A stretch of DNA of 35,645 nt from an uncultured Clostridia bacterium (GCA_947628925.1 CANRBU010000002.1:1-35645), one strand, 5' to 3'. Shown: positions 23,307 to 31,591, numbered from the stretch's first letter. Notes: generated from the sequence alone by a model not told the origin. Made by a program: numbers and translations.

Positions 23307-23325
23307 GTTACAAAAAGGAACTAGA

Positions 23326-23359
23326 ATCATAAATTGAAATACAGACAAACATAAAAAAA
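23326..23359 (+). repeat. 34-bp perfect direct repeat, copy 1 (left flank of the kinase module)
   Basis: ATCATAAATTGAAATACAGACAAACATAAAAAAA is identical to 27173-27206. Weaker similarity extends about 20 nt on each side. Confidence 0.9.
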
Positions 23360-23401
23360 GATATAATTTGTATAAAAATTAAAGGTAAAATAGGTAAAAA
23401 T

Positions 23402-25465
23402 ATGAATATATGCATTATTGGGAAAAATTCTAAAATTGCAAAAGTAATAGAAAATTCAGATATAGTAAATAATAATTGTATAGTAAAGTGCAGTCAAAGA
23501 GAAACAAGTAAATTCAATGAGCTTAACATGAGCGATATTATTATATATTTAGTATCTGATACAAGAACAAAGCTAAAAAAAGATGAATATCTAGAATATA
23601 TATATTCTAATTGTTTCTTATTAGCTAATTTTATTACGGAAAATGAAACAAGCATAAAGGATAAGCAATTTATATATTTTTCATCTGCAAAAGTATATAA
23701 TATTTTTAAAAATAAAGAAATTTATACAGAACAAGAAAATATGCAAGACATTCCAAATTATTATGAATTATTAAAACTTGCTAAAAAAATAATTAATATT
23801 TCTAATTGTAATAATCAGCAAACAAAGACATGTATAGAAAAAGAAATCCTACCAGAATTTTTAAAATTACCTAAAATAGAAAAATATTATCCAATATATG
23901 AATATTGTAAAGTAATATCAGAGATAATAATTCACTTACTACTAAAAAAAGCGTATATATTAAGACCAACATATTTATATGGAATAGAGGAAGATAAAAA
24001 TATAGTATATGATTTAATAAAAAAGTCTTTTAAAAATAAGAAAATAGAATTAACAACAGCAAAGAAAGATTTTATTAGTTATGAAACATTAATTAAGTTA
24101 TTAAATATACTAATTTCGAAAAATGAAAACAATATTAAAATAATAAATGTATCTTCAAATAAAAATATAGACAATAATGAGCTAAAATATTTTATAGAAG
24201 CAATAGGAGAAATAATAGGCAAAGAAATAGAAATCAAAAATATTGTAAAATGTAATAAACAATATAATGTATCCAATGAATTACTAATAAAATATTTAAA
24301 AAATGAATATATAGTAGAAAAATTTGATGAAAACATAAGAAAAATAATATATAATTATTACATTAGAGAAGTTGAAAAATTAGAAATAGATAAAGAATAT
24401 ATAGGTGGATCTTATGCAAAAACATATTTAGTTAAGAGGAACAATAAAAAATTTATATTAAAAATGAGTATAGGAAATGGAGCTTCTAATGGCTGCATAA
24501 AAATTAAAAATGAAGCACTACAAATAGACAAAATGAAAAAAATATTAGATAAACAAAATATAAAATGTTTGCCTAAAATTTATGAAATAAAAGAATACTC
24601 TAATTCAACTTTTATAAAAGAAGAATATATAGACGGTAAAACTATTTCAGATTATATATATGAAAAACATACTAATGAAAGTCTAGTAGAAAACGAAATA
24701 AAAAATATGTGCAATCTATTTTTATCAATCTATATTAAAGATACAATACCACAAAGAAAGAATATGCTAGAACAAGGTATTATTAGAGCTAAAAATAGAC
24801 TTGAAAAAGTGAGAGAAACAAATTATATATCTAACTACTTTAAGAATGTACTTACATTTGATAAAATTATAATAAATAATGTTGAATATAAAAATTCACT
24901 GTATTTACTAGAAGAAATATATAAAAAACATAAATCAAAATTTGAAAATATGCTTGGATTATGTTTAAGTGGAGATATTATTTTAGATAATGTAGTTATT
25001 AAAAAAAATCATCAATATATAATCGATTCTCGAGGTGAAAATCTAGAATGGATTAATAATAAACCATACTTTGATCCATATTATGACTGTAGTAAAATAT
25101 TGTTTTATTTTTATGGCTGGAAGTCAATAAGAGAAGAAAGATTTATTGTAAATACAACAGGATATGATATGATAGATACTCGTAGCAATATAAGTTTTAC
25201 TGACAAGAAGAAGAAAATACTACATAAACTGTCTAAAATATCGATGCAAGAATTTTTAAAATTTAAACCGTACATAAATAAAAATGAGAATGAAAATATA
25301 TTCGTGGACAAATTAAATTTACTATCAGGCATTCACTTTTTATCAGATACATACCCAAGAATATTAGGAGCAGGAAATAGAATAGAACAGTGCTATGCAG
25401 AATTTCTAGTAGGAACAATTATAATAAATAATATATATGAAAAAATAATGAAAGAGTGGGAATAA
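23402..25465 (+). CDS. Two-domain fusion protein: N-terminal SDR/NAD-epimerase-like domain + C-terminal APH/choline-kinase-like phosphotransferase domain
   Basis: - N-terminal: ICIIGKNSKIAK (degenerate Rossmann), YFSSAKVY, YEYCK (YxxxK).
- C-terminal: GGSYAKTYLV...KFILKM (G-loop + Lys), LSGDIILDNVVI (catalytic HGDxxxxN-like loop), YIIDSRGE.
The sequence is visibly much more AT-rich than metK or the NRPS. Confidence 0.6.
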   Translation: MNICIIGKNSKIAKVIENSDIVNNNCIVKCSQRETSKFNELNMSDIIIYLVSDTRTKLKKDEYLEYIYSNCFLLANFITENETSIKDKQFIYFSSAKVYNIFKNKEIYTEQENMQDIPNYYELLKLAKKIINISNCNNQQTKTCIEKEILPEFLKLPKIEKYYPIYEYCKVISEIIIHLLLKKAYILRPTYLYGIEEDKNIVYDLIKKSFKNKKIELTTAKKDFISYETLIKLLNILISKNENNIKIINVSSNKNIDNNELKYFIEAIGEIIGKEIEIKNIVKCNKQYNVSNELLIKYLKNEYIVEKFDENIRKIIYNYYIREVEKLEIDKEYIGGSYAKTYLVKRNNKKFILKMSIGNGASNGCIKIKNEALQIDKMKKILDKQNIKCLPKIYEIKEYSNSTFIKEEYIDGKTISDYIYEKHTNESLVENEIKNMCNLFLSIYIKDTIPQRKNMLEQGIIRAKNRLEKVRETNYISNYFKNVLTFDKIIINNVEYKNSLYLLEEIYKKHKSKFENMLGLCLSGDIILDNVVIKKNHQYIIDSRGENLEWINNKPYFDPYYDCSKILFYFYGWKSIREERFIVNTTGYDMIDTRSNISFTDKKKKILHKLSKISMQEFLKFKPYINKNENENIFVDKLNLLSGIHFLSDTYPRILGAGNRIEQCYAEFLVGTIIINNIYEKIMKEWE

Positions 25466-25469
25466 TTAG

Positions 25470-25688
25470 ATGATTCTAGAAGATATCCAACAAGAATTAG
25501 CTATTGAAACATTAACTGAATATATAAATATACTTAATAACGAAGATAGTTATAAAGAAAAAATTAAAGAAGTTAAAAAATTAAGAGATAATTTAATTAC
25601 TAAAAATAGTACAGAAATTGCAAAAATATTAAGCGAATATAATAATAAAATAAAACAATACAATAGTAATAGATATTTAGAGGGATAA
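25470..25688 (+). CDS. Small acidic helical protein (72 aa), candidate epsilon-like antitoxin/partner of the downstream zeta-like kinase
   Basis: Starts 4 nt after the preceding stop and ends 3 nt before the zeta-like start. Its size and position match epsilon/PezA-type partners. I recognise no sequence motif. Confidence 0.4.
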   Translation: MILEDIQQELAIETLTEYINILNNEDSYKEKIKEVKKLRDNLITKNSTEIAKILSEYNNKIKQYNSNRYLEG

Positions 25689-25691
25689 AAT

Positions 25692-30664: not shown

Positions 30665-30712
30665 GATTTTCCTCCTTAAAAATATGAAACTTTTTATCAT
30701 TTTTATAATTTT

Positions 30713-30793
30713 GTTTCACATTTATATTATACCACAAAATTATAAAAATGTGAAACTTTTTTTGCGATTTTTTCTAAAAAATGTTTCACATTT
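30713..30793 (-). promoter_or_regulatory. Promoter/operator region of the Doc/Fic-like gene with repeated GTTTCACATTT motifs
   Basis: Minus strand: TTCACA (plus 30749-30754), 17-nt spacer with TGg, TATAAT (plus 30726-30731). The 11-mer GTTTCACATTT occurs at 30713-30723 and 30783-30793 (plus sense) and inverted at 30746-30756, overlapping the -35 and the start-site region. Confidence 0.5.
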
Positions 30794-30894
30794 AAATATA
30801 ATTATATGCTTATTCAAAACTACCTATTTTATTGCTAAATTATTCCGTTTACGGAACTTTTGTGTATTACAACTACGCACATTTTTACTTAAAA

Positions 30895-30922
30895 AAGCAC
30901 TTACTTTTTTAAGTAAATGCTT
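30895..30922 (-). terminator. Rho-independent terminator of the 30941-31591 gene
   Basis: AAGCACTTACTT / AAGTAAATGCTT stem (one mismatch) with a TTTT loop. On the minus strand it is followed by a T-run. Confidence 0.6.
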
Positions 30923-30940
30923 ATATTTTTCTATATGATT

Positions 30941-31591
30941 TTATTTTTCTTTAATCGTATATAAACCTATATCAGGTTCTACAAATATTGAATCATCTAC
31001 TTTATCAAATTCATATTCTCTTGTAGAAATATTTTCTCCATCAACTGTTTTAAAATATAAACCTGTATCTTTCTCAATATAAGTTTCTACACTAGTTGAA
31101 CTTAAAGTCATTGATGATAAAAATCCTTTTATAATATAACAATCTTTTCCATCACAATTAGTAGATTTTATATTTGAGCAGATGCTTCCAAAAAGAGTTT
31201 GCCAATTATTGTCTGTTTCCAAAAAATTATAAATATTAATTGACATAAAGTTATCTGTTCCTAATTGTACCGTTTTTCCTTCTTTGTTATCATAAAATGT
31301 GTCTTTTCTTTCGCCATTGTTATAAATGGATATTTTTGAAATTTCTCCATTTAAATTTCTTTCCATAAACACAACTTCTTTATTATCTTTTTTATAGTAA
31401 TCCATTGTAATAATTGTTCCATCACTTTCAGATGTTACAGACTTTGTACGATAATTAGTACTATTTACATATTTTGCTATTTTATTTTGCAAATCAGAAA
31501 TGATAACATAATTTCTAAAAGTATGAATTAAAAATAATGCAATAACTATTAATAATATTATTCCTATAATTTTAAAAATCTTCTTTTTCAT
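30941..31591 (-). CDS. Membrane-anchored/secreted hypothetical protein (216 aa)
   Basis: N-terminal KKKIFKIIGIILLIVIALFLI anchor followed by a beta-rich domain. RBS GGGAGG. Preceded by its own promoter and a c-di-GMP-I riboswitch. Confidence 0.75.
   Translation of the reverse strand: MKKKIFKIIGIILLIVIALFLIHTFRNYVIISDLQNKIAKYVNSTNYRTKSVTSESDGTIITMDYYKKDNKEVVFMERNLNGEISKISIYNNGERKDTFYDNKEGKTVQLGTDNFMSINIYNFLETDNNWQTLFGSICSNIKSTNCDGKDCYIIKGFLSSMTLSSTSVETYIEKDTGLYFKTVDGENISTREYEFDKVDDSIFVEPDIGLYTIKEK

Follow-up and report, generated by a model that had tools for sequence, protein, structure and literature searches.

We have analysed a 35.6-kb stretch of DNA, called the window in what follows, from an uncultured gut Clostridium; it is AT-rich (about 22-34% GC), and its nearest relatives are metagenome-assembled genomes (MAGs) from rabbit caecum. 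Around zupT, the gene of a ZIP-family metal transporter, it carries three cassettes in series, each lying between the two copies of a direct repeat (DR1, DR2 and DR3) that is built from the 3′ end of a gene. We best read this locus as several recombination scars, stacked around what is left of the ends of elements that carry a large serine recombinase (LSR), at an insertion hot spot at zupT. As the mechanism we favour, with a probability of roughly 0.55, a displacement of the host gene's 3′ end by recombination that is homologous on one side and illegitimate on the other, followed by deletion. The repeats themselves appear to be scars of recombination, not target sites of a recombinase.

A preliminary description of this DNA had proposed three consecutive modules, each bracketed by direct repeats. 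All three pairs were recovered at, or within a few bases of, where it had placed them (about 54-68, 102 and 130-177 nt; 85-95% identity), with one cassette inside each, and the gene content is as it had been described, namely HAD1, a kinase operon extending to HAD2, zupT, iterons with an AAA_14/DUF4143 gene, a Fic/Doc gene and a gene for a 216-aa protein (p216). In modules 2 and 3, the intact gene lies upstream in the same orientation as the cassette and keeps one 3′ end, while a co-oriented orphan 3′ end is found beyond the insert, such that the displaced original end that had been suggested is indeed present; in module 1, a relic tail resembling that of HAD2 lies upstream, as had also been stated. 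In every module the stop codon of the last cargo gene sits within the downstream repeat. The cassette part of the window contains no further comparable repeat pair, and the sole other pair in the whole window (13751-13813 / 16860-16925, 63 nt, 85%) lies within large minus-strand open reading frames (ORFs) resembling nonribosomal peptide synthetases. The features of modules 2 and 3 are the following.

27279..28019, plus strand: zupT, ZIP-family metal transporter (Pfam Zip; exact-match gene call of 246 aa)
27922..28023, plus strand: left copy of DR2 (102 nt, 95% identity between the copies), comprising zupT codons 215-246 counted from the TTG at 27279 (229-260 from the 27237 ORF), with the stop codon and 4 further nt; on the live gene
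28024..29452, plus strand: cassette A, with iterons, promoter and AAA_14/DUF4143 gene
28052-28151, plus strand: four and a half 23-bp iterons of cassette A
28131-28159, plus strand: promoter of cassette A, TTGAAA-17-TATAAT
28189-29458, plus strand: AAA_14/DUF4143 gene, broken by a +1 frame change near 28620-28650
29453..29554, plus strand: right copy of DR2, an orphan zupT 3′ end
29562..29738, minus strand: left copy of DR3 (91% over 116 aligned nt), an orphan p216 3′ end with the last 24 sense codons, stop codon and terminator, and an extra hairpin of ~47 nt inserted within the terminator
29732..30887, minus strand: cassette F, with Fic gene, operators, promoter and ~90 nt upstream that match the left end of an integrative and mobilizable element (IME)
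29732-30664, minus strand: Fic/Doc-family gene, motif QvFiDGNKR
30754-30726, minus strand: promoter of cassette F, TTCACA-17-TATAAT
30888..31017, minus strand: right copy of DR3, the live p216 3′ end and intrinsic terminator (stem 30922-30895)
30941-31591, minus strand: p216

The junction between zupT and the iterons and that between the p216 terminator and the Fic promoter are reproduced by two low-coverage contigs of a separate assembly (L081, L082), while the junctions 29452/29453 and 29738/29739 are supported by the window contig alone. Since the copies of each repeat differ by 5-15%, they are not collapsed or duplicated copies of the assembly, which answers the objection, raised in the preliminary description, that the repeats might be assembly duplications.

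About 160 loci around relatives of zupT (identified by L numbers) were fetched from genomes and metagenomes. Across them, prfA and zupT form a conserved pair, with a spacer that can be as short as 0.07 kb or as long as 6.6 kb. Among the closest relatives, L001 has prfA, zupT and mscL side by side, and in L002 and L171 zupT is next to mscL; the DNA that the window holds in the prfA-zupT and zupT-mscL intervals is therefore lineage-specific. Beside or inside zupT, relatives carry RhuM genes, an AAA14/DUF4143 gene and another Fic gene, and the families concerned match single-gene defence candidates of PADLOC, namely PDC-S01, PDC-S04 (weakly) and PDC-S05 (RhuM). Among the gut Clostridia of this clade, the neighbourhood of zupT is a hot spot of insertion, and the block in the window is a lineage-specific pile-up. 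The earlier suggestion of a hot spot that gathers defence or toxin-type genes was thus borne out, both by the adjacency of prfA, zupT and mscL in close relatives together with the PDC-S01 and PDC-S04 matches, and by the recurrence of RhuM (PDC-S05), Fic and AAA14/DUF4143 genes beside zupT. In several species, a RhuM-family (PDC-S05) gene directly precedes or follows zupT, without long repeats (L006 10956-11921, L023 10862-11818, L095/L102 ~8400-9300, L105 9401-9706).

zupT itself is a target of LSR integrative elements. LSR-bearing elements interrupt it in seven loci, and their left and right attachment arms (attL and attR) are recognisable. Six of these insertions lie at the core CCAGAAGG at codon ~160 (L028-L031, L042, L043/L046), and the seventh (L126) lies at a similar secondary 'IPE' site at codon ~58. 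The zupT gene of the window, the likely true start of which is the TTG at 27279, is intact, and its attB core CCAGAAGG, which was deduced from relatives and lies at about 27723, is unoccupied. It was also observed that the LSR genes of zupT-targeting elements carry a +1 frame change at the same codon (L030 9727-11344, L031 13306-14878, L046 5-1133): the protein runs ..IFNMA|S.. and then VYGEEIGTIKNYLN, the DNA at this point is ATGGCWAGTWWRCGG, both halves are open, and the proteins are only 72-75% identical. The frame change may represent programmed recoding or a recombinase made in two pieces.

The last cargo gene of one of these elements is matched by cassette A. L046 has, in order, an LSR gene, 23-bp iterons, an AAA14/DUF4143 gene, an attR that begins one base past the stop codon, and zupT from codon ~160; another contig of this MAG, L043, holds the 5′ half of zupT, which ends in attL. 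The AAA14/DUF4143 protein of L046 is intact (433 aa) and shares about 50% aa identity with that of cassette A, which in turn matches PADLOC PDC-S01 with E = 3e-60. Judged by this comparison, cassette A is a terminal cargo unit of the L046 type minus the LSR gene and attR. Approximately 25 nt at its start are possibly derived from the tail of the LSR gene, though this trace is weak. The window gene carries a single frame change, within 28600-28650 and outside any homopolymer run, and is probably a pseudogene. The 23-bp repeats (CTTGAAAATWTACCAACAAAAGT) occur upstream of the AAA14/DUF4143 gene in two genomes (window 28052-28151, L046 ~1090-1200), and the last iteron provides the -35 box; a similar array in L011 (7932-8037) stands without an AAA14/DUF4143 gene. 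These iterons may be operator sites.

The differences between the DR2 copies bear on where the relic came from. There are five, of which four are synonymous and one is a Val/Ile exchange (P about 0.03 for at least four of five being synonymous under random mutation). The live copy is nearer to the zupT of relatives in 57 loci and the relic in 20, and the relic holds derived states relative to other species. Such divergence fits a joining of two functional alleles, in which the relic would stem from the working zupT of a strain ~5% diverged, and does not seem to be what decay after an in-place duplication should leave. The DR3 copies, with two synonymous and two non-synonymous changes, are uninformative on allele origin. 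The orphan ends of zupT and p216 abut, such that 29453-29738 reads as one contiguous, empty convergent zupT/p216 junction with a shared terminator region, and they look like a single piece of an unoccupied zupT/p216 junction.

For cassette F, the source is seen in another family of elements. The Fic protein has thousands of relatives and is unusually conserved, with more than 100 90%-identity clusters at 90-94% aa identity from many samples. In the contexts that were read (L163-L170), its gene comes first behind attL in LSR IMEs by which a large GH94 gene is split, and in L163 a gene for a 545-aa LSR lies at the right end, adjoining attR. Between species, the Fic unit is 88-92% identical at the nucleotide level, as compared to 65-72% for the surrounding GH94 genes. 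The unit in the window starts about 26 nt inside the element end, lacks the 26-nt LSR P′ arm and ends at the stop codon. These correspondences identify cassette F, as far as sequence comparison goes, as an end fragment of an LSR IME. A third context is given by an IMG/VR contig (L173), where the Fic unit lies between unrelated genes. At the nucleotide level, the window copy is 88-92% identical to this unit and to those of L163-L170; all other matches in phage and plasmid collections were distant relatives.

Several further observations concern this gene and its elements. The motif QvFiDGNKR of the Fic protein has Gln in place of the usual catalytic His, and two copies of a palindromic operator of ~50 bp (AAATGTGAAACA..TGTTTCACATTT) precede the gene (window 29732-30793, minus strand). 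The GH94 IME family (L163 5740-5900, 10740-11060; L164-L170) uses a conserved target site coding for GGQYTH in a GH94 gene of ~2600 aa, and its insertion severs the last ~140 codons of this gene. The cargo after Fic is variable, and in the L164 group includes a pair of a Gabija-like OLD nuclease and a UvrD helicase as well as a Mob_Pre relaxase.

A filled and an empty locus of one species can be compared for the relative L126 only, the window's own species being without such a pair. L126 and L125/L122 belong to the same species (97-99.7% identity). L126 has a 1.5-kb RhuM insert between the two copies of a stretch that spans the last 16 nt of prfA, the spacer and the first ~58 codons of zupT; this duplication aligns over 108-113 nt and was originally about 295 nt long, the left copy having later suffered a 120-nt deletion. 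At its left junction the insert has an LSR attL arm, nearly identical to the arm of L029; the right junction is without att features and illegitimate. On the side of the restored zupT the identity to the empty alleles is 96-97%, as opposed to 99-99.7% on the left side. In the simplest history, an LSR element first broke zupT; DNA of an intact allele was later added by a homologous join on one side and an illegitimate one on the other, which restored the gene, with the relic staying in place. A systematic comparison of all fetched loci gave five same-species insertion events, and a long duplication is present only in LSR-associated L126. Hence, long duplication is not a general feature of insertion in these genomes; in the single case seen, it goes with gene repair or displacement at an element junction.

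Module 1 has the architecture of the other modules, except that the relic lies upstream. Its features, including the gene directly before it, are these.

22644..23306, plus strand: HAD1, HAD-family hydrolase (Pfam HAD_2, E = 2e-41), directly upstream of module 1, with its stop codon 7 nt ahead of the left DR1 copy
23314..23378, plus strand: left copy of DR1 (85% over 68 nt), a HAD2-like relic tail (..KKELES*) and ~45 nt downstream; perfect 34-nt core at 23326-23359 / 27173-27206
23402..27179, plus strand: cargo of module 1, a conserved five-gene operon (GC 19-24%, against about 30% in the flanks)
23402-25465, plus strand: gene for a 687-aa protein (K687), the first of the operon
25470-25688, plus strand: gene for a 72-aa protein
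25692-26165, plus strand: gene for a zeta-toxin-like P-loop kinase of 157 aa
26128-26502, plus strand: gene for a 124-aa protein
26499-27179, plus strand: HAD2, HAD hydrolase, the last gene of the operon
27161..27228, plus strand: right copy of DR1, the live HAD2 tail and the HAD2-zupT spacer

The kinase (K687) operon, including the 'split' of the zeta gene, was also found in L174, L175 and L176-L181 at other chromosomal sites, which makes three distinct chromosomal positions in three species. As the five genes and the zeta split are conserved at three loci, this is a mobile operon, and the conservation of the split across species means that it is not a pseudogene lesion. In L174, from a rabbit-gut MAG, the operon lies between rplS and polC and is bracketed by a 29-nt repeat (7778-7806, 11762-11790), which corresponds to the last 8 codons both of an unrelated 253-aa gene and of HAD2 (28 of 29 nt match) and is unrelated in sequence to DR1. 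The order in L174 is HAD2 tail, terminator, promoter, operon and HAD2 tail. This resembles a circular form written out over a little more than its full length, and the operon looks circularly permuted, with a terminal redundancy of 29 nt. As for DR1 itself, its HAD2-tail part is similar to the native HAD2 tail of L176, suggesting that it came with the operon, but its distal part (27193-27219) matches the region upstream of zupT in L171, suggesting that it came from the target.

We infer that a process of the L126 type extends to all three repeat pairs of the window. Two versions of the locus, one with and one without an element, from strains about 5-10% diverged, would have recombined. The homologous crossover would have taken place in or beyond the host gene, and the other join would have been illegitimate with a few bases of microhomology, a type known as homology-facilitated illegitimate recombination. 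The outcome would be a host gene that is intact and retains its own 3′ end, followed by a piece of the element with the terminal cargo gene and then by the orphan 3′ end of the other allele. Deletions would later have cleared away the dead DNA of the element, recombinase gene and att arms included, as far as the stop codon of the cargo gene that was kept. Two polarities can be envisaged, in that an intact gene may have been added next to a broken copy, as for L126, or a segment of gene plus cassette may have displaced the end of the resident gene. The repeats are likely to be without a dedicated function, their sole activity being an occasional RecA-dependent loss of the cassette.

A number of points speak against this course of events. 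Microhomologies of 3-6 nt are possible at the junctions (AATTAA, AATAT, GGAA) and would fit illegitimate joins, but at 25% GC this is weak evidence, since such matches are fairly frequent by chance in AT-rich DNA. No second strain was found: exact-protein look-ups with zupT, p216 and Fic led to two short same-strain contigs with the same arrangement, which is also all that came of the search for same-species empty sites proposed in the preliminary description, and one genome-collection and one metagenome scan gave no zupT nearer than 82-89% aa identity. There is therefore no empty site and no single-cassette intermediate for the junctions of the window. Direct adjacency of zupT to cassette A, or of p216 to Fic, is absent in the relatives examined, and the donor arrangement that one of the polarities requires is therefore unobserved. 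Each module needs at least two events (a join and a deletion, or two joins). The illegitimate join lies at the cargo stop codon, or at most about 18 nt upstream of it, in all three modules, a placement that is accounted for only if deletional trimming is assumed. Finally, the repeat begins at the identical HAD2 codon (..ATG|GAA..) in the window and in L174; this may reflect a defined breakpoint or an intermediate in circular form, neither of which follows from the proposed mechanism.

Site-specific integration was the reading put forward in the preliminary description, according to which the modules are decayed integrative elements or derivatives akin to cis-mobilizable elements (CIMEs), with the gene-tail repeats as att sites of trans-mobilisable cassettes. 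Integration into a gene's 3′ end with an element-borne replacement end is classic for tyrosine-integrase elements, gene and cassette are co-oriented, and tandem arrays with integrase-less members have been described (PMC5704250, PMC3146451). However, DR1, DR2 and DR3 share no core beyond chance, such that three unlike repeats would require three recombinases, the kinase operon bears the unrelated 29-nt repeat at L174, and the repeats vary in length across the examples (29, about 54-68, 102, about 130-177 and about 295 nt). Relatives have no insertion at these positions: none of the about 160 zupT loci is occupied at the DR2 position (codon 229 counted from the 27237 ORF, equal to codon 215 from the TTG start at 27279), and the two nearest loci of p216 homologues (L171, L172) contain no insert. 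A scan of the larger ORFs across the window, apart from the 1666-aa ORF at 11263-16263 and the short ORFs of the last ~1 kb, revealed no domain of an integrase, transposase or resolvase, nor was a cognate recombinase seen in the 35.6 kb, the only part of the genome examined. LSRs, the recombinases of the parent elements, exchange DNA at a core of 2 bp without making long repeats, and matches to LSR att arms, retained attL or attR arms included, are absent from the window, the only trace being the weak one of the LSR gene tail. In its cargo, on the other hand, the window does agree with LSR remnants, as cassette A resembles L046 and cassette F the att-adjacent genes of L163-L170. The statement that no recombinase is in sight thus holds for the ORFs scanned, but overlooks that recombinase-bearing elements are the source of two cassettes, which represent their ends; the recombinase with an att core matching the repeat ends, which had been proposed as a check, did not emerge, the acting enzymes being LSRs with att arms not found here. 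We regard this reading as improbable. We also considered whether the DR2 junction might be an LSR pseudo-site, located at a third 'IPE' codon motif in zupT, and rejected this, because the host homology starts 8 nt upstream of the would-be core and there is no P arm. The cassettes have no terminal inverted repeats, and the window shows no hallmarks of transposons or insertion sequences (fixed-length target duplication, terminal inverted repeats, transposase) nor of integrons (an imperfect-palindrome, attC-like element shared by cassette ends, or an integrase). A retrotransposition-like origin, with precise 3′ end and variable 5′ end and duplication, was rejected as well, since the units carry promoters and end at stop codons, not terminators. 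Repeat pairs in other relatives (L005, L024, L033, L143, L139) contain no tRNA and no Rfam family; that of L011 is a repeated terminator-like hairpin, and those of L095/L099/L100 flank a conserved M23 peptidase gene.

A further explanation, of the Campbell type, invokes a non-replicating circle that carries the cassette and a captured gene tail and integrates into an intact locus through one RecA crossover within this tail, which is thereby duplicated; such a circle could stem, for example, from an LSR element that was excised aberrantly, and the cassettes would be recombinase-free units targeted by homology. It predicts exactly the observed order of repeat, cassette and repeat with an intact gene, accounts for the allele-like divergence of DR2 through hybrid copies of donor and recipient, agrees with the permuted operon and 29-nt redundancy of L174, and is equally compatible with L126. 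Against this, the homology arms, with 29-102 nt, are about as short as RecA crossover permits, neither a circle junction nor a second site with the same cassette and arm was found, each circle still requires an illegitimate join, and circles of 1.2-1.5 kb would be without transfer function, so that we consider it unlikely. There is a slim chance that the cassettes go further and are recombinase-free mobile units with the captured gene tail as a homing arm, which loop out via the repeats and re-enter by RecA crossover. This is suggested by the kinase repeat, which has an identical HAD2 codon as its starting point in two unrelated places, and by the permuted layout of L174, clues that would point to a defined circular intermediate; if true, single defence genes would shuttle between LSR elements and chromosomal hot spots, with the target gene always restored. 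Template switching, in which a stalled fork copied a gene of an element residing elsewhere in the same genome and returned upstream, thereby duplicating 30-300 nt of the target, would explain the variable length of the duplications, the target origin of the duplicate, the microhomology at joins and the fact that the inserts are single genes or operons cut from larger elements. Yet copies made in this way should be identical at birth, whereas the DR2 differences look allelic and coding-constrained; a second copy of the Fic or AAA gene from this genome is not on record, and four of the five same-species insertions have no long duplication, which makes such copying quite unlikely. That the repeats are old in-place duplications, or a two-strain assembly chimera, unrelated to insertion, is very improbable. 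Identities of 85-95% rather than 100% do indicate that no event was very recent, and two of the four inner junctions rest on the window contig, but two outer junctions are confirmed by independent contigs, the cassettes are demonstrably foreign, and L126/L125 shows a duplication arising with an insertion. Also, simple tandem duplication of the convergent junction, tried as a candidate and rejected, would place the relics in the opposite order.

Beyond the cassettes lies a block that seems to have moved as well, here called the P block. Besides p216 it comprises the following.

30941..32901, minus strand: P block, with the 216-aa gene, an anti-sigma gene and an extracytoplasmic function (ECF) sigma gene
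31619-31707, minus strand: c-di-GMP-I (cyclic di-GMP) riboswitch directly upstream of p216 (76 bits against a gathering score of 35)
31781-32416, minus strand: anti-sigma gene
32413-32901, minus strand: ECF sigma gene

Given the riboswitch ahead of it, p216 is a separate c-di-GMP-controlled unit downstream of the sigma/anti-sigma pair. The P block (window 30935-32973) is 91-94% identical at the nucleotide level to L002 2-1017 / L171 6601-8624, while the neighbouring core genes are only 80-84% identical to those of L002/L171, and zupT 84%. In L002/L171 the block lies upstream of zupT, on the opposite side from that in the window. This points to a recent transfer of the P block between lineages, the block being itself an exchanged module. 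Elsewhere in the window, there is a tRNA-Lys gene at 9-84 and an S-adenosylmethionine (SAM) riboswitch at 257-349, ahead of a 287-aa ORF without Pfam match and then metK (within 425-2540). The MscL homologue (33513-33965, minus strand) is extended at its C-terminus by a stretch with a zinc-ribbon-like CxxC..CxxC motif, an uncommon feature in this channel.

With respect to known systems, the 3′-end displacement that we favour resembles that of rhs, contact-dependent inhibition (CDI) and type VI secretion system (T6SS) effector-immunity loci, where orphaned 3′ ends strung behind an intact gene are attributed to homology-facilitated illegitimate recombination (Kirchberger et al. 2017, PMC5361080; Jackson et al. 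2009, as cited in PMC5361080). Both there and, on our reading, in the window, an intact gene is followed by new DNA and then by the orphan 3′ end of the old allele, repeated events give arrays, and one-sided homology anchors the incoming DNA without a dedicated recombinase. However, the displaced ends at those loci are polymorphic toxin domains with immunity genes, forming arrays with a clear selective logic, whereas the genes hit in the window are a metal transporter, the riboswitch-controlled p216 and a HAD hydrolase, the insert is LSR cargo, and two convergent genes were hit back to back. IMEs and CIMEs (Guedon et al. 2017, PMC5704250) and the tandem ssrA islands of Dehalococcoides (PMC3146451) resemble the source class of cassettes A and F in that they have gene-internal or gene-end targets, accumulate in tandem and include integrase-less members. 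Their flanking repeats are the att core and constant per family, unlike the repeats of the window, which are mutually unrelated, differ from LSR att sites and vary in length. Like integron cassettes, the window shows an array of promoter-proximal single-gene units without a recombinase of their own, but there is no attC-like element, shared repeat or IntI, and its cassettes have their own promoters. LSR 'intervening elements' are known to split genes of Firmicutes, e.g., skin in sigK and SPbeta in spsM. The elements of the relatives (L028-L031, L042, L043/L046, L163) likewise bear an LSR and interrupt coding sequence at a defined core; the window, by contrast, holds end fragments only, and developmental excision is not implied. 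At hot spots described as 'minimal mobile elements', whole-gene cassettes swap between conserved flanking genes through recombination in the flanks. The prfA-zupT-mscL interval, filled by differing cassettes in different strains, is similar to these, though partial duplications of flanking genes are not predicted there.

Many defence islands and hot spots hold single defence-type genes without visible mobility, and this locus offers a concrete route by which they may get there: an LSR element delivers genes into a host gene, recombination with an intact allele repairs that gene, and the terminal cargo is left stranded by an orphan end. zupT and a GH94 gene are defined LSR attachment sites in uncultured gut Clostridia. 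If the route is general, the 3′-end displacement of toxin loci would also act on ordinary genes, and orphan gene tails would be markers for the origin of 'immobile' defence genes.

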